Shown: in pieces, positions 43,699-53,163 of the stretch
How the letters are laid out: the number at the start of each line of letters is the position of its first letter
Position numbering within the stretch: the first letter of the stretch is position 1
Assembly (NCBI GenBank): GCA_965248545.1
Contig: OZ252110.1
Span: 1,270,224-1,334,223 of the forward strand
From: Alteromonadaceae bacterium
GTDB taxonomy: Bacteria > Pseudomonadota > Gammaproteobacteria > Enterobacterales > Alteromonadaceae
Reading direction: 5' to 3'
DNA length: 64,000 nucleotides
Translations under genes and position numbers: made by a program
The notes under the pieces: model-generated
Told to the model about the DNA's origin: nothing
Databases searched by the model: none
What the model saw: the letters and a program-made list of their open reading frames with translations, nothing else

Positions 43699-44865
43699 AT
43701 GTTCGATGTGCGTCACAGCATTAGCTTGCTGTTTAATGCCAATAAGGTATACGACCGGCAAGTTATAGCTGGAATCGGAAATTATTTACAAGCCTCTAAA
43801 GTCAATTGGGACATATATTTAGAGGAAGATTTTTTATGTCGTTTACAGCACATAGAGGAATGGTCTGGAGATGGCATTATTGCCGACTTTGATGACGCTA
43901 CCATCCGCGAGGCACTTAAGGGGATCAACAAACCCATTATCGGTGTTGGCGGTTCCTATCAGGATGAAAGTGCTTATCCTAGTGTTCCGTATGTCGCTAC
44001 TGACAATCACAAGTTGGTCGAAGACGCCTACAAGCATTTAAAAAATAAAGCACTGGAACGCTTCGCCTTCTACGGCATCCCCCATGATGATTCTCATTGC
44101 TGGGCACGAGAGCGCAAGCAGTCATTCTTTCAATTAACCGAAGCGGATGGATACAAATGCCATTATTTTGAAGGAATCCCAACGACTCCTGACACATGGC
44201 AATATGCGATGAATCGATTGTCGGACTGGTTGCAGCGACTACCAAAACCGATCGGGATTTTGGCCGTCACTGATAGCCGGGCTCGGCATATTTTACAAGC
44301 CTGTGATCAAACCAATATTGCAGTACCTGATATGGTCTCCGTCATCGGCATAGACAATGATGAAATTGCTCGGCATCTGAGTCGAATCAGTCTGAGTTCA
44401 GTGAGCCAAGGTTGTGTTGAAATGGGGTATCGAGCAGCAAAGCTGCTACACAATCGGCTGACGACTGAATCAGAAAAACTGCCTCGGATTCTGGTACCAC
44501 CTACCGGTGTAATTGAGCGACAATCGACGGATTATCAGTCCCTACGTGATCCTTTCGTCATTCAAGCCATGCAGTTTATTCGACAGAATGCCACTCTCGG
44601 CATCAAAGTAGAGCAGGTCACCGACTATGTCGGTATGTCACGTTCAAATCTCGAACCCCGTTTCGTTGCGGAACGTGGCCACACGGTTCACGTGGAAATC
44701 CACAATGAGAAACTGCGCCGAGCCTGCAGATTACTCAAAACAACGGAGATGCCGACCAAAGAAATTGCGCAACTGTGTGGTTATCCATCGATACAATACA
44801 TGTACGCCGTATTTAAAAAGCACTTTAATCAAACGCCAAAACAGTATCGAGGCGAAGAAAAATAG
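43699..44865 (+). CDS. xylR: Xylose operon activator XylR (periplasmic-binding-protein-like N-domain plus AraC HTH)
   Basis: FNANKVYDRQVIAGIG, DGIIADFD, YVATDN, VIGIDN, SLSSV, C-terminal AraC (CGYPSIQYMYAVFKK). Confidence 0.95.
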   Translation: MFDVRHSISLLFNANKVYDRQVIAGIGNYLQASKVNWDIYLEEDFLCRLQHIEEWSGDGIIADFDDATIREALKGINKPIIGVGGSYQDESAYPSVPYVATDNHKLVEDAYKHLKNKALERFAFYGIPHDDSHCWARERKQSFFQLTEADGYKCHYFEGIPTTPDTWQYAMNRLSDWLQRLPKPIGILAVTDSRARHILQACDQTNIAVPDMVSVIGIDNDEIARHLSRISLSSVSQGCVEMGYRAAKLLHNRLTTESEKLPRILVPPTGVIERQSTDYQSLRDPFVIQAMQFIRQNATLGIKVEQVTDYVGMSRSNLEPRFVAERGHTVHVEIHNEKLRRACRLLKTTEMPTKEIAQLCGYPSIQYMYAVFKKHFNQTPKQYRGEEK

Positions 44866-44882
44866 TATTCTGTTTCGGCCCC

Positions 44883-45020
44883 TCAATCCCCTTTTTGCTG
44901 GAGTTTGAGCGCCTCTAACTCCAATATTTTCATTGATTTTTTGTGATTCAAGTACAGTACAAACATCACAAAAATAGCCGCTACTACTAACCCGAAACTT
45001 AAAAAACCCCACAATGTCAT
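44883..45020 (-). CDS. Unannotated 45-aa single-pass membrane protein
   Basis: Read manually: AGGAGAGCGAC-ATG, then MTLWGFLSFGLVVAAIFVMFVLYLNHKKSMKILELEALKLQQKGD*. Starts 22 bp after the acyltransferase stop on the same strand. Below the 60-aa cutoff of the ORF track. Confidence 0.75.
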   Translation of the reverse strand: MTLWGFLSFGLVVAAIFVMFVLYLNHKKSMKILELEALKLQQKGD

Positions 45021-45042
45021 GTCGCTCTCCTAATTTAGTGTT

Positions 45043-46269
45043 TTACCGAGTCAAATGTGCATCGGATTTACTCTCCAACGTCCACACATGAGGCTTACGC
45101 TTTCCATTAAGCGTAGCACCGATAAATGATGTTCGAACAAAGGCTTCATACAACGCGATTGATATAACCACCGTGATAATACAAATGCTGGAAAGCTTGA
45201 CCAACCAATGTAATGGCAATTCAGCAAATACAACTTGTAACCCTACCACTATTGGCAGATGAATTAGATACAACCAGTAAGAAGCATCCGCCACATAGCG
45301 CACCCACTTTGAAGCCCTTGAAAACAATCTGCTGCAGACACCCAGACTCACAACCACCATTGACCACATCATTACCGCGTAGGCTACAGTAAAAGCGAGT
45401 TTAATTTCGGCAAAATACATATGTCCGGGCTGACTTTCATACGGCGACAGCAGTACACAAATCAATGCCGCCACACATGCCAAGATCCCACGCCCCCAAC
45501 TGAGCTTACCCCAACGCTGGATCAGAGTCCCTTGTCTCTGTAAACACCAACCAAACACAAAGCAACCAGCATAAAGAGCGGTCACCGGTAGGTGTGGCCA
45601 CAGAGACTGATCGGGCGTATCGACTCCCCACCGCTGCATAAACCAAAGACATAGAATGGTCGGTAGCGCTATGACAAAAAGACCCATTGGACTTGAACAC
45701 AACCATGCAATCAAACTGTCGCTGGCACGTTTAAAAGTGTCGGCTACACTCGGTAACAACCCAATCGCATTGCGCAATAAAACAACCGCCAACGTGATAA
45801 AGAAGAGGTAATACAAAAACCATAAGTGAGTGCCCACAAACAAGTTACTCGGCAAATCACCTAATGACGCAAAGCCTTCCTTGAACGCTAACAGCCATTG
45901 TGCATCGCCGCGCATACTTTGCATACCTGCGATCCAGCCGGCCACCAGCAAGGGGCGCAGAACGAACCAACCGACGACAAAGGGTAATCCTATTCTGAAG
46001 ACGCGAGATTTTAGGAAACCCTGCCACCCGAGTCGGTGATAGGTCATATGGCTAAAAAAGCCCGCAATCAGGAAAAATAGTTCCATCCGAAATGAGTGAC
46101 TTATCATACCGAAGACGGCAACGGCTTGGCTGGTTGAAATGTCCATTACGGCCCAGCCAATAAAAATCGGCATGAACGATAAACTGGCATGAAAGACGAT
46201 ACCCAACAGCAGGGCAAAAGCTCGCACAGCATCTAGGTAATCCAGTCTTGGTTGAGATAGCGTAGTCAT
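45043..46269 (-). CDS. Acyltransferase family 3 (OpgC/MdoC-like) membrane protein
   Basis: RLDYLDAVRAFALLLGIVFHA, HSFRMELFFLIAGFF, THLWFLYYL, DASYWLYLIHLP. Confidence 0.9.
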   Translation of the reverse strand: MTTLSQPRLDYLDAVRAFALLLGIVFHASLSFMPIFIGWAVMDISTSQAVAVFGMISHSFRMELFFLIAGFFSHMTYHRLGWQGFLKSRVFRIGLPFVVGWFVLRPLLVAGWIAGMQSMRGDAQWLLAFKEGFASLGDLPSNLFVGTHLWFLYYLFFITLAVVLLRNAIGLLPSVADTFKRASDSLIAWLCSSPMGLFVIALPTILCLWFMQRWGVDTPDQSLWPHLPVTALYAGCFVFGWCLQRQGTLIQRWGKLSWGRGILACVAALICVLLSPYESQPGHMYFAEIKLAFTVAYAVMMWSMVVVSLGVCSRLFSRASKWVRYVADASYWLYLIHLPIVVGLQVVFAELPLHWLVKLSSICIITVVISIALYEAFVRTSFIGATLNGKRKPHVWTLESKSDAHLTR

Positions 46270-46341
46270 GTTTGTCACCCAATCATTTTAATTTGCATAG
46301 ATAACGCGAGCGTTGTTGCTCGCGCAGTGCTGTGTGCTCAA

Positions 46342-46941
46342 TTAATAAAAACTGACTTCGTCTAATTCAAAATCGAATTCACCTGGCTGCAGTCCGAAAG
46401 CCACAATACTCAAACTATTAACCGTCTTGGGATTCAATGCAGTCTGTTCTGACCACATGCGTTTCATAGAATCGAAAGGTACCTTAACTTCGTGAAATTC
46501 ACCGTCGCTGCGTAAGACAACTTGTGCTGCGTGGTAATCAAAATTGGTTACTTCATTGCTGTTTGCTGACAATGACAAACTACCGCTATTCAGTTTTACC
46601 AGTAAGCGCACGCCTTGGTACTCGCTTAAATCCGGCGCTTCACCCATAGGTGCAAGTGGCAGAACCGAACTAGCCCAACCAGGTTGACCACGAGGAGGGG
46701 TTATCTTACCGGTTACATGCATAACACCACTGTGGACTTTCGTTTCAGATTGGGAGCCGCCACCCGCCATAGCATCAGTCATAAAAATGCGGTCAAACCC
46801 ATAACTGTTCTGTGTAGCGCTATCAAACGCATCCACAACTGCAGTTCCAGCAAACGCAGTTGATACCAGTGCGCTAGAAATTAGCACAGCTGTGCTGACG
46901 GTTTTCATCGTGTGACACAATTTTGTGAATGTCGTTTTCAT
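46342..46941 (-). CDS. Exported CIA30-family (carbohydrate-binding-module-like) protein
   Basis: Signal peptide from ATG 46941, MTDAMAGGGS, GWASS, DLSEYQGVRL, VKVPFDSM, FELDEV. Confidence 0.8.
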   Translation of the reverse strand: MKTTFTKLCHTMKTVSTAVLISSALVSTAFAGTAVVDAFDSATQNSYGFDRIFMTDAMAGGGSQSETKVHSGVMHVTGKITPPRGQPGWASSVLPLAPMGEAPDLSEYQGVRLLVKLNSGSLSLSANSNEVTNFDYHAAQVVLRSDGEFHEVKVPFDSMKRMWSEQTALNPKTVNSLSIVAFGLQPGEFDFELDEVSFY

Positions 46942-47025
46942 CTTTTGTATTCCTCTTGTTGCATAACGTTGTTTAATGAGTCGAAAGCGACGCAGTGCGC
47001 TTTTTTTCGCTTCGTTGCTATACAA

Positions 47026-47055
47026 GTGCCAAGGTCAAATCTAAAGGTGACAAAT
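47026..47055 (-). promoter_or_regulatory. Candidate ECF sigma promoter of the CIA30 operon
   Basis: Minus strand ATT-TGTCAC-CTTTAGATTTGACCTT(16 nt)-GGCAC; twin of 48885-48914. Confidence 0.65.
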
Positions 47056-47078
47056 TTTTTTAATTTTTTTTGTTTTGC

Positions 47079-47105
47079 TGTCCCCATCCGCAGTGTTTGA
47101 TCGTT
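47079..47105 (+). promoter_or_regulatory. Candidate ECF (ECF42-like) promoter of the YciI gene
   Basis: TGTCCC-17 nt-CGTT, about 50 bp before the ATG. Confidence 0.4.
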
Positions 47106-47156
47106 TAGTCATTGCATTACATGCTATTTTTAAACACAAAAAGATGAGGATAAAAC

Positions 47157-47507
47157 ATGAACGATTACGTACTTTTATACCAAGGTGGAGATCCTGATTG
47201 GGCTGCAAATACCTCTCCTGAAGAGATGCAAGCCTCTATGGCGAAATGGGAGGAATGGATGACTCAATTGAGCGCTCAAGGTAAGTTAGTATCCGGTGGT
47301 GACCCATTGCATTATGCCGGCAAGCGAGTCACCGCTGATGGTGTCGCAACCGACATTGCTGCATCAGAACTGAAAGAACTTGTCAGTGGCTATTCCATCG
47401 TTAAAACCGCGACTTTAGAAGACGCTGTGGAGATTGCAAAAACATGTCCCATTATGGATTACCCCGATATCGTGGTTGAGGTTAGACAAGTTTTCAGGAT
47501 GGATTAA
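47157..47507 (+). CDS. YciI/DGPF-family protein
   Basis: YVLLY, GKLVSGGDPL, KELVSGYSIV, LEDAVEIAKTCP, VEVRQV. GAGGA precedes the ATG. Confidence 0.85.
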   Translation: MNDYVLLYQGGDPDWAANTSPEEMQASMAKWEEWMTQLSAQGKLVSGGDPLHYAGKRVTADGVATDIAASELKELVSGYSIVKTATLEDAVEIAKTCPIMDYPDIVVEVRQVFRMD

Positions 47508-48764
47508 TCACACCTTTATCTGCCGAACTAAAGTGTTGAAATCCAGCTGTGGCAGGCCTGCCTGCCTAGCTTTATCAGCATATGCGAGGGCAGTTTCACG
47601 CTGCCCTCGCTTCCAATTGATGTAAGCCAAGGTTGCAAAGTAATGCCCTTTTATTGCGTCATATTCGATGAATTCATTTTCGTCGAGTAATGCCAATGCG
47701 TCCCGTACGTCACCCATTTCCGTCATTGCAACTGCCGCGCTTAAAAGATTTAGCGCTGAGGGATTAATGTTCAATAGCACCTTATAGTGCTGCACGATGG
47801 TCTGCCATTGGGTTTGCGCAAACTCTGTGGCTCGGCAGTGCTCAAAGGCAATTAACGCTTCCAATAAATAAACCGATGGCGTGCTATTCGCGCTGTCCAG
47901 CGCTCTTTGTAACAATGACATACCCAGTTTTAAATGAGGTGCCAGCCAAGTGCTTCGGTCTTGCTCCATCAAAGTCAGTGGCAAGCCCCTGATATCAAAA
48001 CGACTCGGTAAGCGGGCGTAGTGCAAGTGCATCAACGCTGTAAGAGAAAGTGACTCAGCATTGCGAAAGCGCGGCTCACTAATGATTAAGCGCATAAAGC
48101 CTAGCGCAGATGCGCAGATATCATTTCGACTCGCCGGATTCGGATTGTGTGCACTTATCCCCTCATTAAACAGCAGATATAGACATTGATGGACTCGGTC
48201 CAGAGCGGCGGGCAATTCGTCGTCACATGGAATCTCGAATTGCACCTCAACGAGTTGCCGTTTTGCTCGTGATAAACGCTTTTTTATGGTCTCAGGCTTA
48301 GACAACAAGGCTCGTGCGATAGCATCGACATTCATGCCACACAAGATCTTAAGTGCTAGAGGCAAACGTTGCGCGGCAGACAGCTCAGTACTGCTTAACC
48401 AAAACAAAAGTCGCAGTTGGTCGTCTTGTACCAGTTGTTCGGAAAAAGCCGACTCCATCGCATGTGACAATGTCCATTCACTTTGCAATGTGGGTAAGAC
48501 GGCGTGATTCAAAATGTGCTGGCGTTTATTGTGTTGCCGCAAGTGATCGATTGCCGCGCGTTTTGCCGTGAGTTTCAGCCATGCCGCAGGGGCTTCTGGT
48601 AAACCATCTGCTTCCCAGTGCTGTAGCGCTTTACTAAATGCTTCTTGAACAAGATCTTCTGCGAGGGCTAGATTGGACGGCCCCAGTACGCGCAGCAAAG
48701 TAGCAAGAACTTTACTCGCCTCCTGCTGATACAAGTCATTAATTGTGTCTTGGATGCTAAGCAT
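47508..48764 (-). CDS. ECF sigma factor with C-terminal DUF6596/TPR extension (ECF42-like)
   Basis: LAEDLVQEAF..AL..W, sigma-4 region ETIKKRLSRAK, VHQCLYLLFNEG, YLLEALIAFEH, TPR-like end. AGGTG precedes ATG 48764. Confidence 0.85.
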   Translation of the reverse strand: MLSIQDTINDLYQQEASKVLATLLRVLGPSNLALAEDLVQEAFSKALQHWEADGLPEAPAAWLKLTAKRAAIDHLRQHNKRQHILNHAVLPTLQSEWTLSHAMESAFSEQLVQDDQLRLLFWLSSTELSAAQRLPLALKILCGMNVDAIARALLSKPETIKKRLSRAKRQLVEVQFEIPCDDELPAALDRVHQCLYLLFNEGISAHNPNPASRNDICASALGFMRLIISEPRFRNAESLSLTALMHLHYARLPSRFDIRGLPLTLMEQDRSTWLAPHLKLGMSLLQRALDSANSTPSVYLLEALIAFEHCRATEFAQTQWQTIVQHYKVLLNINPSALNLLSAAVAMTEMGDVRDALALLDENEFIEYDAIKGHYFATLAYINWKRGQRETALAYADKARQAGLPQLDFNTLVRQIKV

Positions 48765-48884
48765 ACACCTGCTGACGTTCACAAATATTCAGTGCGTTTC
48801 GCTATCCTATCAGCTATTTCACCGTCATATCAGCATAAGATGTGCAGTCGAGTTGGGCATGCAACGCAAAAATAAATTAACTAT

Positions 48885-48914
48885 ATTTGTCACCTTTATT
48901 GGCAAATGCGGCAC
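48885..48914 (+). promoter_or_regulatory. Candidate autoregulated ECF promoter
   Basis: ATT-TGTCAC-CTTTATTGGCAAATGC(16 nt)-GGCAC, 30 bp before ATG 48945; twin of 47026-47055. Confidence 0.65.
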
Positions 48915-48944
48915 ATACTGTTAAACGATCATAGAGTGAAAACC

Positions 48945-50558
48945 ATGAACCTATTTTCTAAAGCCGGCTCCGACATCGATGACGCTACACTGGTGATGCA
49001 CTCACTCGGCGGGGATCGTGACGCATTTTGTGAAATCGTCACTCGTTACCAAACCTTGTTGTGCTCCATCGCCTACTCCTCAGTGGGCGACATAAAACAC
49101 AGTGAAGACATAGCTCAAGAGGCTTTTGTAGAGGCCTGGCGCAAGCTTGATACACTCAAGGACCCAGCCAAACTCAAATCGTGGCTATGCGGGATTTTGC
49201 GCTTTAAGGTCAGTCGTTTTAGGCGCAAAGAGGTCGGCCAGCCCGCTTCCGATCTCAATGACGTACAAGAGCAGACGTTAGCAGACCACGCCGCTCCCAA
49301 CATGGATCAAAGTGCGATTGAACAGCAGCAACAAGTCCTATTGTGGAAAGCACTCGATGGCATGGATGCAACCTATCGAGAACCTTTAGTATTGTTTTAC
49401 CGTGAGCAGCGCTCTATCGAGCGAGTCGCAGCAGAGCTTGAACTTACCGAAGATACGGTAAAACAGCGATTGTCTCGAGGTCGGAAGCTGCTAAAACAAG
49501 CGATGAGTGTCTTTGTGGAAGATGCACTTGAGAAAACTAAACCAGGTGTTGCATTCACTACGGGCGTGTTGGCAGCGATTAGCTCAATTTCCCCACCGGC
49601 AAAAGCCGCAGTTCTAGGCGCAGGCGCAGCCAAAACCAGTAGTATGTTCAGTGGCGCCACAATCATTGCGATACTAGCCTCGACTTCTGGTTTAATTAGC
49701 GGTTTTTTCGGACTGCGCTCAAGCCTAGATCAATCCAGAACTGAGCAAGAACGTCAATTAACGAAAAAAGTTGTCGCTCTGTTTATCCTGTCCGCTGTGT
49801 TATTTGTTGGCGGCGTTTTCGGACTGCGGCAATTGGCGCTCTTGCATCAAGAGCAAACGTGGCTTTACGCTTTAGGTGCTCAAATTGTGGTAGCCGGTTT
49901 CATAGTGAGCTACTTCGTACTGGTCTCGCGCGCCTTTGGCGCCATCAAAAATCAACGCGCACACGAACGAATTTTCAATCCCGATGCGTTTAAAGCAGAA
50001 GTCGATCAAGTAAATGCCAAACAACGCGAGTACAAAAGTGCGTTCCAGTTATTTGGTGTTCCGCTTGTTCATTTTCAATTTGGCATGCCCGAGGTGACCG
50101 ACAAGCCCGCGTTCGGTTGGATTGCCGGAGGTACATACGCAAGAGGATTATTATTCGCGTGGGGCGGTGTGGCAATCGCGCCTGTGAGTGTGGGTATTAT
50201 TTCCTATGGAATATTCACTATCGGCGCTGTTGGGATCGGCATTTTTAGTGCAAGCGCTGTGGCAGTCGGGATCGTCGGCTTCGGCAGCGCTGCAATTGGA
50301 TATAAGGCTTATTCTTCTCTGTCTTCACTGGGTTGGGAGAGTGCCTTTAGCAATGGTTTTTCAATCGCCAAAGACGCGGCTATTGGGCCGATTGCCTTTG
50401 CACAAGAAGTCAATAATGAAGCAGCCGCACAATTGTCCAACCTGACCACATTGGATAATGTCTATCAATGGGTGCTCGCAACCATCGCGATACTTGTTAT
50501 TATTCCGTCAATCTGGCATTCAACTAAGGTTCGCAAACGCATGAAGCTTGACAAATAG
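48945..50558 (+). CDS. ECF sigma factor fused to a multi-pass, Gly-rich membrane extension
   Basis: Sigma-2 SEDIAQEAFVEAW...SWLCGILR and sigma-4 YREPLVLFY...TVKQRLSRGR, then at least 4-5 hydrophobic segments and REYKS..LFGVPLVH plus Gly-rich repeats. Confidence 0.85.
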   Translation: MNLFSKAGSDIDDATLVMHSLGGDRDAFCEIVTRYQTLLCSIAYSSVGDIKHSEDIAQEAFVEAWRKLDTLKDPAKLKSWLCGILRFKVSRFRRKEVGQPASDLNDVQEQTLADHAAPNMDQSAIEQQQQVLLWKALDGMDATYREPLVLFYREQRSIERVAAELELTEDTVKQRLSRGRKLLKQAMSVFVEDALEKTKPGVAFTTGVLAAISSISPPAKAAVLGAGAAKTSSMFSGATIIAILASTSGLISGFFGLRSSLDQSRTEQERQLTKKVVALFILSAVLFVGGVFGLRQLALLHQEQTWLYALGAQIVVAGFIVSYFVLVSRAFGAIKNQRAHERIFNPDAFKAEVDQVNAKQREYKSAFQLFGVPLVHFQFGMPEVTDKPAFGWIAGGTYARGLLFAWGGVAIAPVSVGIISYGIFTIGAVGIGIFSASAVAVGIVGFGSAAIGYKAYSSLSSLGWESAFSNGFSIAKDAAIGPIAFAQEVNNEAAAQLSNLTTLDNVYQWVLATIAILVIIPSIWHSTKVRKRMKLDK

Positions 50559-51745
50559 TGCCGCAACTCACATACAAGGAATGCTGTTTACCGATGCTAT
50601 CTCAGCCGCAAAACATTGAAGATTTAACGACCCCGTGCTGCCTCATTGATAAGGCAAAAATGCAACGCAATATCGCTCGCCTCGCTGAGCACACAGGCCG
50701 CTTGGGCTGCAAAATCAGGCCGCATGTCAAAACGCATAAATCTATCGAAGTGGCGAAATGCATTGAAGCGGGCGGCAATGTAGCAGGGATCACCGTATCG
50801 ACACTGCAAGAAGCGCAACACTTTTTTGCTCACGGTTATCACGACATCCTGTACGCTGTCGGGATCGTACCGAACAAACTGTCGACGGTTGCCAATCTGA
50901 TTGAACAAGGCTGTGACCTCAAAATTGTGTTGGATAATCCAGCCATGGCGCAATTAGTAGTGGCCAAAGCAAACCAGTTTAGTTGTCGCTTCAAGGTACT
51001 AATCGAACTCGACACCGATGGGCATCGCTCTGGTATCGAGCCGCGCAGTCAGGCGTTACTAGACGTTGCGGAGCAATTGGCAAAAGCGCCCAACATCGAG
51101 TTACTCGGTGTCATGACTCACGCTGGTGAGTCGTATACCTGCTTCACGTCAGATGCTCAACTCAAAATGGCAAAACAAGAGCGCGACCTTTCTTTGCTCG
51201 CAGCTGAGCGGTTGCGCGCCGCGGGTTACCCATGCCCAGTGGTATCGATAGGCTCTACACCAACCGCCTTTGCGATAGATGACCTAACCGGAATAACGGA
51301 AGTGCGTGCCGGCGTTTATGTGTTTTTCGACTTAGTGATGGCTGGGTTAGGTGTTTGTAACGCGGCCGATGTCGCTATCAGTGTGCTCGCCAGTGTCATT
51401 GGTTATCAAGAAGATAAGAATTGGGTCATTACCGACGCAGGTTGGATGGCTATGTCTCGCGATCGCGGAACATCGAATCACTCTGTCGACCAAGGCTATG
51501 GTCTAGTTTGCGACGCCAGTGGTAAATCGTTGGATACCTACATCGTCAGTAGTGCCAACCAAGAACACGGTATTATTGCCAACAGAGAAACCAAACAGGA
51601 CACAGACTATTCTCTGTTTCCACTGGCTTCTCACATACGTGTTTTACCCAATCACGCGTGTTCAACGGCAGCGCAATTTAGCCATCTATATATCATTGAA
51701 GATGGTAAAGTTGTCGACCAATGGCCGTTGACCCGCGGTTGGTAA
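50558..51745 (+). CDS. Fold-type III PLP enzyme, DSD1-type D-serine dehydratase / D-threonine aldolase family
   Basis: TPCCLID, RPHVKTHK (PLP Lys), GVMTHAG, SIGSTPT, EVRAGVYVFFD, NQEHG, PNHAC metal site. Start overlaps the ECF stop; 50591 is an alternative start. Confidence 0.9.
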   Translation: MPQLTYKECCLPMLSQPQNIEDLTTPCCLIDKAKMQRNIARLAEHTGRLGCKIRPHVKTHKSIEVAKCIEAGGNVAGITVSTLQEAQHFFAHGYHDILYAVGIVPNKLSTVANLIEQGCDLKIVLDNPAMAQLVVAKANQFSCRFKVLIELDTDGHRSGIEPRSQALLDVAEQLAKAPNIELLGVMTHAGESYTCFTSDAQLKMAKQERDLSLLAAERLRAAGYPCPVVSIGSTPTAFAIDDLTGITEVRAGVYVFFDLVMAGLGVCNAADVAISVLASVIGYQEDKNWVITDAGWMAMSRDRGTSNHSVDQGYGLVCDASGKSLDTYIVSSANQEHGIIANRETKQDTDYSLFPLASHIRVLPNHACSTAAQFSHLYIIEDGKVVDQWPLTRGW

Positions 51746-51753
51746 CCGAGATT

Positions 51754-53163
51754 TTAGCGCCCCTGTAGAAAGGTGATTTGCTCACTGATATCAACGCCTT
51801 CAGCATCGGTCACTCGGATCTTAAAACGCGTGACCGCTGCATTTAATGTCGCCGGATCAACCACAAGAGAGAGTGGATAGCGAGCCAGCTCACTGGCAGG
51901 TACCACAACTTCCTTAGGTCCATTGAACGCGATAAGATTGAGATCCTGAATACTGATAGTGAATTGTTGCGCTTGCTGCGTTTTATTGCGAATAATCAGT
52001 GTGTAGACGTTCTCGATATGCCCTTCAAATGTCTCACGATACAGGGCCGTGCGATCACGGATGATATCGATATCGTGATTATTTCTAGATGCGATATCAA
52101 ACACTAATGCAGCACTCATGATCAACAGCACACTGAAATAGCCGATCACCTTAGGACGCAATAATTTGGCAGATTGCCCGAATGTCGCGTTTTCCGAACG
52201 ATAGGCAATTAAGTCTTTTGCGTAGCCCATCTTATCCATGACACCATTGCACGCATCCACACAAGCTCCGCAGTTTATACATTCATATTGCAGGCCATTG
52301 CGGATATCAATTCCCGTCGGGCAAACCTGCACGCAAAGATTACAGTCGATACAATCTCCGAGTCCCTGTTGCTGATACACCTGCTGTGGCATTTTTCGAG
52401 GACGCGGCCCTCTCCCCTCTCCTCGCTTGCTATTATAAGTAACAGTCAAAGTATCACTGTCAAACATCGATGATTGAAAGCGCGCGTAAGGGCACATGTG
52501 CGTACACATGATTTCTCGCATCCAACCGGCGTTGATGTAGGTGCAAAAGGCGAAGAAAACCACGTAGAACGTGGGCCAAAATGCTAATTCAAAAGTCGCG
52601 ATATCGATGAAAACCTGTTGGATAGGCACAAAGTAACCGACAAACGTCATGGAGGTTAGCGCGGCAATCGCGAGCCAAATAGCATGCTTGGTAGCTTTTT
52701 TGATGACTTTCTGGGCGGAGTTAGGTTGCTTGTCGAGCATGATGCGCTTGTTTCTAGCACCTTCAACTTTTTCTTCAACCCAGACAAACAAAAAGGTGAA
52801 CACCGTTTGTGGACACATAAACCCACACCACACACGCCCCCAAATGGCTGTGACAACAAACAAAGCAAACGCGGCAACAATAAACAACCAAGCGAGCAAG
52901 GTTAAGTCTTGCGGCCACAAGGTTAAGCCAAACAAATGGAAACGTTGGGCAGCAAAATCAAACAGGATGGCTTGGTGACCATCGAAGGTTAGCCAAGGTA
53001 GAAGCGCGAATAGAGCCAGAAACAACAGACCAAACCAACGTCGAAATACTTCAATCGTGCCCTTGACCGACCTAATGTAGATTTTGTTGGATAGCGCCGC
53101 TACTGTTGCAGCTGGTTTGGCATCCGTAACGTCGACAATTTTTATTGGCTGACCGATAGACAT
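51754..53163 (-). CDS. ccoG: CcoG/FixG/RdxA family 4Fe-4S membrane protein
   Basis: GRVWCGFMCPQT, CTHMCPYARFQ, CIDCNLCVQVCPTGIDIRNGLQYECINCGACVDAC, C-terminal Ig-like FixG domain. Confidence 0.95.
   Translation of the reverse strand: MSIGQPIKIVDVTDAKPAATVAALSNKIYIRSVKGTIEVFRRWFGLLFLALFALLPWLTFDGHQAILFDFAAQRFHLFGLTLWPQDLTLLAWLFIVAAFALFVVTAIWGRVWCGFMCPQTVFTFLFVWVEEKVEGARNKRIMLDKQPNSAQKVIKKATKHAIWLAIAALTSMTFVGYFVPIQQVFIDIATFELAFWPTFYVVFFAFCTYINAGWMREIMCTHMCPYARFQSSMFDSDTLTVTYNSKRGEGRGPRPRKMPQQVYQQQGLGDCIDCNLCVQVCPTGIDIRNGLQYECINCGACVDACNGVMDKMGYAKDLIAYRSENATFGQSAKLLRPKVIGYFSVLLIMSAALVFDIASRNNHDIDIIRDRTALYRETFEGHIENVYTLIIRNKTQQAQQFTISIQDLNLIAFNGPKEVVVPASELARYPLSLVVDPATLNAAVTRFKIRVTDAEGVDISEQITFLQGR

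Follow-up and report, generated by a model that had tools for sequence, protein, structure and literature searches.

Two copies of a bipartite element, TGTCAC-N16-GGCAC, are found in a 64,000-nt stretch of an Alteromonadaceae bacterium genome (assembly GCA_965248545.1, contig OZ252110.1, positions 1,270,224 to 1,334,223; hereafter the window, whose own numbering is used throughout). One copy precedes a gene encoding a 537-aa extracytoplasmic function (ECF) sigma factor that is fused to a membrane domain. The other precedes an operon encoding a CIA30-domain protein and an Acyltransferase_3 (AT3) membrane protein. Based on the sequence comparisons presented here we consider it probable, at roughly 85%, that both elements are promoters recognized by the fused sigma factor itself, which would thereby drive its own gene as well as the CIA30-AT3 operon. 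We refer to the elements as P_ecf and P_cia30, respectively.

The twin elements and their uniqueness in the genome

The two elements share a 14-mer, ATTTGTCACCTTTA, with identical copies at 47055-47042 on the minus strand and 48885-48898 on the plus strand. The full elements read TGTCACCTTTAGATTTGACCTTGGCAC (47052-47026, minus strand) and TGTCACCTTTATTGGCAAATGCGGCAC (48888-48914, plus strand), and in both the gap from TGTCAC to GGCAC is exactly 16 nt. Each is oriented towards its own gene. For P_ecf, the first T of the -35 element lies 57 nt from the ATG of the ECF gene (48945), and for P_cia30 the corresponding distance to the CIA30 ATG (46944) is 108 nt. The two -35 elements are separated by 1836 bp. 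An earlier note on this DNA had described the shared 14-mer, the GGCAC and the 16-nt spacing, which are exact at both sites, and had placed the copies 1.8 kb apart upstream of the CIA30 operon and the ECF gene, as our measurement confirms. Its gene identities were likewise borne out by Pfam. When the window was shuffled 100 times with dinucleotide content preserved, two motif matches did not occur in any of the shuffles (mean 0.05).

The genome containing the window consists of one contig of 4.198 Mb. Exact matches to TGTCAC-N16-GGCAC number five genome-wide, where ∼2 would be expected by chance in 4.2 Mb. We also scored the genome using a position weight matrix built from 90 orthologous sites. 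The two window sites have the highest scores in the genome, 38.5 bits for P_cia30 and 34.9 bits for P_ecf. The third-ranked site scores 17.9 bits, has no GGCAC and has no gene downstream. None of the remaining three exact core matches has the extended motif. Two, at 7.9 and 8.9 bits, are located inside long open reading frames (ORFs), and the last falls outside the 30 best matrix sites listed. The genome-wide scan, which the earlier note had proposed as a check, thus sets the window pair apart, and from the gap of ∼17 bits to the next genomic site we conclude that the element marks exactly two places in this genome.

No Rfam family was matched within 44500-52000. A riboswitch or attenuator in the 5′ untranslated region of the CIA30 gene was considered as well and dropped, as this region folded like its shuffled versions (z = 0.53).

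Conservation of the motif with the fused sigma gene

Species-representative genomes were scanned with the fused sigma, which yielded 80 loci. Full-length orthologues of 534-547 aa with 43-66% identity were found at 59 of these, in Alteromonadaceae, Colwellia, Psychrobium, Cellvibrionaceae, Woeseiaceae, metagenome-assembled genomes (MAGs) of Lysobacterales, Verrucomicrobiota and Acidobacteriota. Nearly all orthologues carry TGTCACCTTT-N12-GGCAC(T/A)TA upstream of the sigma start codon. The same sequences emerged from an unbiased k-mer count in the 150 nt upstream of each sigma gene. Among 57 distinct regions, GTCACC was present in 56, TGTCACC in 54 and GGCAC in 54, and in a coding control the commonest 7-mers reached 17 only. 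The consensus of the motif is aaaaa..tTGTCACCTTT-N12-GGCAC(T/A)TA. The C at +6, the TTT and the TA after GGCAC are conserved even though they were outside the search pattern, and the spacer positions hold less than 0.4 bit each. The spacer between TGTCAC and GGCAC is N16, rarely N15, and the -35 element lies 43-159 nt from the sigma start codon.

Directly divergent from the sigma gene, ∼55 loci have a CIA30 gene with an Acyl_transf_3 gene behind it. The intergenic region shared by the sigma and CIA30 genes is 170-430 bp long, and in most loci it contains a second copy of the motif that faces the CIA30 gene. Across 64 loci, together ∼1 Mb, sites of at least 20 bits occur at the sigma-side and CIA30-side positions only. 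This suggests that the regulon probably consists of two promoters.

Genomes with and without the fused sigma were also compared. In nine further sigma-positive genomes TGTCACC-N15-GGCAC marks the module, and additional matches are at chance level. Among 40 relatives of the organism in question, a full-length orthologue was found in one only, which belongs to another genus (G010); the module was not found in the genomes of the same genus. In the 39 relatives without the sigma, TGTCACCT-N14-GGCAC gives a total of 4 matches where ∼4.6 are expected, and in the two genomes that carry the sigma it matches inside the module only. Since the motif stays at chance level without the sigma and within the module when the sigma is present, we conclude that motif and sigma co-occur and that the regulon is minimal. 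One sigma-less genome (G006) has a lone strong-looking motif (L096), which lies between genes in repeat-rich sequence; a PEP-CTERM gene is 315 nt away. No module genes are nearby, and we take this match to be due to chance.

Several other loci carry related sequences. Rheinheimera baltica DSM 14885 contains a deleted remnant of the fused sigma gene (L075:2106-2535) in which residues 1-71 (75% identity) are joined to residues 482-534. Upstream of this remnant an intact TGTCACCTTTT-N12-GGCACTTA is seen. The 10.5-kb locus showed neither a CIA30 nor an AT3 gene. ECF paralogues of Kofleriaceae MAGs (L065-L074), which are ∼40% identical in the sigma core only, have TGTCACC-N15-GCGACTAT ∼40-60 nt upstream of their sigma genes, and this suggests a wider clade with a common -35 element. 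In the genome of locus L013 (G049) two near-identical extra matches, TGTCACCTATCCAGTC(G/A)ACCTTGGCAC, are found outside the module (contigs C4:354-380 and C19:100294-100320); a repeated element could be their source.

Spacing of the divergent elements

We measured the distance between the first T of each element in the divergent TGTCAC pairs of L001-L063. The distances fall in clusters of 21-23, 30-33, 44-45, 54-57, 65-66 and 74-78 bp, with almost none between. In a Rayleigh test the strongest signal was that for an 11-bp period, with z = 25 (n = 51), or z = 9.3 when each distinct value was counted once, although relatedness between the loci inflates this statistic. The spacing of close relatives differs by ∼10-12, 20-22 or 45-47 bp, placing them in different spacing classes, which indicates that the classes arose repeatedly. 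Possible causes of the spacing are steric phasing of two polymerases, shared A-tracts or cooperative binding. In the window (1836 bp) and in L034 (1723 bp) the elements are wide apart, which shows that the two promoters can do without close coupling.

The fused sigma protein

Sigma regions 2 and 4 span residues ∼25-190 of the protein according to Pfam, and the C-terminal part of 350 residues is hydrophobic and conserved. No anti-sigma domain was recognized, as neither Pfam nor NCBIfam gave a match past residue ∼195. Fused sigma/anti-sigma proteins are expected to have a helical class I domain of ∼80-90 aa between sigma-4 and the first transmembrane (TM) helix. In the fused sigma the first hydrophobic segment follows sigma-4 after only ∼15-40 residues, and the short linker (residues 194-235) has low confidence in the AlphaFold2 model.

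The hydropathy profile shows five hydrophobic stretches, one of which is 54 residues long and has room for 2-3 spans. The AlphaFold2 model (mean predicted local distance difference test score, pLDDT, 70) contains four long helices in total, three at residues 237-344 and a terminal one at 500-533, along with a Gly-rich beta domain. The latter corresponds to a Gly-rich hydrophobic block at residues 360-453, which the model confidently renders as beta structure instead of TM helices. A fold search with the model returned matches to the sigma domain only and none for the C-terminal domain.

In an alignment of 48 orthologues of 534-547 aa (A1) the sigma-4 helix KQRLSRGRKLL (K173 Q174 R175 ... R178 G179 R180) is invariant, as are many residues of sigma-2. 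This fits the invariant promoter. Two cysteines of sigma region 2, C40 and C82, are also invariant across these orthologues, and the linker has a conserved motif, KPG.AFT..VLAAI..I.PPAKAA, within residues 200-222.

The probable target operon and neighbouring genes

The coordinates of all features are listed in Table 1. The CIA30-domain protein has a signal peptide and is encoded by the first gene of the operon. The AT3 protein encoded by the second gene is OpgC/MdoC-like: it scores 150.9 bits against the NCBIfam MdoC model, which is below the curated cut-off of 338. The operon ends with a gene for a 45-aa membrane microprotein. We considered this a possible conserved member of the operon and rejected it, as a comparable ORF is present in only 1 of 54 loci. 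This sole other locus is that of a Colwellia MAG (L002:5300-5560), where a small membrane ORF of 88 aa follows the AT3 gene. Its N-terminus resembles that of the microprotein in the window (LEVEALKI vs. LELEALKL).

Downstream of the fused sigma gene lies a gene for a DSD1-like pyridoxal phosphate (PLP) enzyme. The distance from the ECF stop codon to its start is at most 35 nt and no terminator-like site is seen between them. Judged by this arrangement, the DSD1-like gene probably shares a transcript with the sigma gene, and would do so in this genome alone. None of the orthologous sigma genes is followed by such a gene, and the idea of a conserved gene at this position was rejected, since the loci have no +1 gene in common. 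As neither the DSD1-like gene nor the microprotein is conserved at other loci, both are lineage-specific passengers and not conserved parts of the system.

The window further contains a FixG-like gene (51754-53163), which is an extra paralogue, 58% identical to another copy in the same genome (genome positions 2340287-2341609). Congeners have single FixG-like copies that are 57-58% identical to the window paralogue, and they also lack the fused sigma. The extra paralogue and the lack of the fused sigma in congeners suggest that the stretch around these two genes is accessory DNA.

Table 1. Features predicted around the twin elements, in window coordinates.
Feature	Position	Strand	Basis and remarks
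Membrane microprotein, 45 aa; operon end, lineage-specific, not core	44883..45020	-	ORF
Acyltransferase_3 (AT3) polytopic membrane protein; second operon gene	45043..46278	-	Pfam PF01757
CIA30-domain protein with signal peptide; first operon gene	46342..46944	-	Pfam PF08547
P_cia30, predicted ECF-type promoter of the CIA30-AT3 operon	47026..47052	-	38.5 bits, top in genome
P_cia30, -35 TGTCAC(CTTT)	47052-47043	-	
P_cia30, -10 GGCAC(TTG)	47030-47023	-	
P_cia30, predicted transcription start	near 47021-47017	-	
ECF42-type promoter of the YCII gene, separate; TGTCCC-N17-CGTT, TGTCCCCATCCGCAGTGTTTGATCGTT	47079..47105	+	Motif match
Inserted cassette between the twin promoters, YCII and ECF42-like sigma	47157..48782	.	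Pfam
YCII gene	47157-47507	+	Pfam
ECF42-type sigma (DUF6596)	47508-48782	-	Pfam; likely ATG 48764
P_ecf, predicted ECF-type promoter of the fused sigma gene	48888..48914	+	34.9 bits, second in genome
P_ecf, -35 TGTCAC(CTTT)	48888-48897	+	
P_ecf, -10 GGCAC(ATA)	48910-48917	+	
P_ecf, predicted transcription start	near 48919-48923	+	
Fused ECF sigma, 537 aa	48945..50558	+	Pfam, NCBIfam, alignment, hydropathy, AlphaFold2
DSD1-like PLP enzyme (Ala_racemase_N and D-ser_dehydrat)	50558..51745	+	Pfam; likely start ATG 50594

Proposed circuit and competing explanations

We propose that P_ecf drives the sigma gene and thereby creates a positive feedback loop, with read-through into the DSD1-like gene in this genome. 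P_cia30 would drive the sole conserved effector operon, which encodes the exported CIA30 protein, the AT3 acyltransferase and, here, the microprotein. In the ancestral layout a single intergenic region of 170-430 bp would have held both promoters back to back, and into this region an unrelated cassette with a promoter type of its own was later inserted in this genome. RNA polymerase carrying the fused sigma is predicted to initiate a few nucleotides past GGCAC(T/A)TA. The sigma domain would be inactive while it is tethered and become activated by an envelope signal; by analogy with other tethered sigma factors, proteolytic release is the most likely route of activation. The relationship of AT3 to the glucan succinyltransferase MdoC/OpgC suggests that the circuit serves to acylate a glycan in the periplasm or at the surface. 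The earlier note had proposed a regulon comprising the sigma gene itself, the DSD1-like gene and the CIA30-acyltransferase-microprotein operon. Autoregulation and control of the CIA30 and acyltransferase genes are strongly supported by phylogenetic footprinting and co-occurrence, but its DSD1-like and microprotein members are not conserved.

The elements have several of the features expected of an autoregulated ECF promoter: they are bipartite with a 16-nt spacer, in line with the ∼16-17 nt of such promoters, P_ecf lies upstream of the sigma gene and faces it, and the motif is conserved among the orthologues and specific to sigma-bearing genomes. Some observations weigh against our interpretation. 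The -10 element GGCAC is unlike the usual ECF CGTC, and on the CIA30 side it is degenerate in several lineages (GGTAC, GTCAC, GGCTC), where the CTTA following it is retained. In addition, the sites of a few orthologues (L036, L039, L051) are weak or rearranged. The atypical -10 could instead mean that the element is read by another sigma or a DNA-binding regulator encoded elsewhere, with the fused sigma as a co-regulated passenger, and the ∼11-bp clustering of the distances between copies could also reflect a phased DNA-binding protein. We consider this unlikely, since the fused sigma is the only regulator common to all loci, in at least three phyla, and since the motif is not found beyond chance in genomes lacking it. 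Moreover, an asymmetric, bipartite motif with a fixed 16-nt spacer, always gene-facing and with its -35 within the range of distances from the sigma start given above, has the form of a promoter and not that of an operator. That the twin copies are a chance match or the functionless remnant of a repeat has a negligible probability in our view. A couple of exact core matches are indeed expected in any genome of this kind, and three that look non-functional are present in this one. The window pair, however, has no parallel in the shuffled sequences and is far removed in score from any other genomic site, and the motif is conserved across phyla while its flanking positions stay below 0.4 bit.

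The earlier note had also raised a sigma cascade, in which the ECF42-like sigma encoded between the twin elements would read them. This sigma adjoins the elements in the window, and its own type of motif has the TGTC start of the -35 in common with theirs. We reject the cascade as highly improbable. The ∼59 other modules keep both copies of the motif, and neither an ECF42-like sigma nor a YCII gene was found near any of them. Deriving the ECF42-type motif empirically from YCII upstream regions, we found that a different sequence, TGTCC(C/T)-N17-CGT(C/T), precedes the YCII genes beside ECF42-like sigmas in seven genomes (that of the window and six others). The YCII/ECF42 pair also occurs where the fused sigma is missing, in congeners and in other relatives. 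The congener G005 has the same pair (ECF42 61% and YCII 79% identical) in an unrelated context (L108), and it lacks both the fused sigma and the TGTCACC motif. The absence of the pair from the other modules, its own motif and its unrelated context in G005 all show that the 1.6-kb cassette is an independent ECF42 unit whose insertion has split promoters that are normally 10-180 bp apart. A variant of our own interpretation is that the fused sigma is a membrane-anchored one-component envelope sensor that acts cooperatively at both promoters without leaving the membrane, for example as a dimer formed via the conserved Gly-rich domain. If so, the ∼11-bp steps would reflect the helical register between two tethered holoenzymes. 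We regard this variant as improbable.

Comparison with known systems

Autoregulation is the rule among ECF sigma factors and underlies the prediction of their promoters (PMC7826278). The logic of the present circuit, an autoregulated ECF with a neighbouring target, is textbook. The membrane-fused sigma family itself, which occurs in marine Gammaproteobacteria, Verrucomicrobiota and Acidobacteriota, is uncharacterized. We found no open literature linking ECF sigma factors with CIA30. With a single sigma, a pair of defined promoters and one effector operon, this family becomes a directly testable system. The self-contained circuit would be a convenient model for the activation of a sigma that is membrane-tethered by multiple segments, and synthetic biology could gain an orthogonal sigma/promoter pair from it.

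A close parallel in promoter architecture is ECF41, with the signature TGTCACA-n16-CGTC (PMC3426412). Both systems have a bipartite motif whose spacer is 16 nt long, their -35 elements (TGTCAC) are almost alike, and in both the motif precedes the sigma gene and one neighbouring target, the sole detectable one. Also, the sigma has a regulatory C-terminal extension in both cases and there is no separate anti-sigma factor. Nevertheless, the twin system does not show the ECF41-type promoter and regulon signature. Its -10 element is GGCAC(T/A)TA rather than CGTC, and the -35 has C instead of A at position 7. As its extension the fused sigma carries a polytopic membrane domain, which gave no SnoaL match, whereas ECF41 has a soluble SnoaL-like domain. 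Finally, the target is CIA30-AT3 in place of a gene for a carboxymuconolactone decarboxylase, oxidoreductase or epimerase. The known pairing of ECF42 with YCII/DGPF proteins is represented in the window as well (47079-48782), with a TGTC-type -35 before the YCII gene, but as described above this is a separate inserted unit with another motif, absent from the other modules.

With respect to the protein, ECF263 comprises ECFs with a C-terminal extension of five or seven TM helices (PMC7826278). The fused sigma resembles this group in that its ECF core is extended at the C-terminus by several hydrophobic segments and its neighbourhood contains no anti-sigma gene, and it may belong to ECF263. It differs in that part of its hydrophobic region (residues 360-453) is modelled as Gly-rich beta structure and not as helices. 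Fused sigma/anti-sigma proteins that are subject to regulated proteolysis include IutY of Pseudomonas putida (ECF243) and SCO4117 (ECF52) (PMC8999054). As in these proteins, a covalent link holds the sigma domain at the membrane, and proteolytic release is the obvious route of activation. IutY and SCO4117, however, have a recognizable anti-sigma or zinc-finger domain, 1-2 TM helices and a large extracytoplasmic sensor, whereas the extension of the fused sigma is mostly embedded in the membrane.

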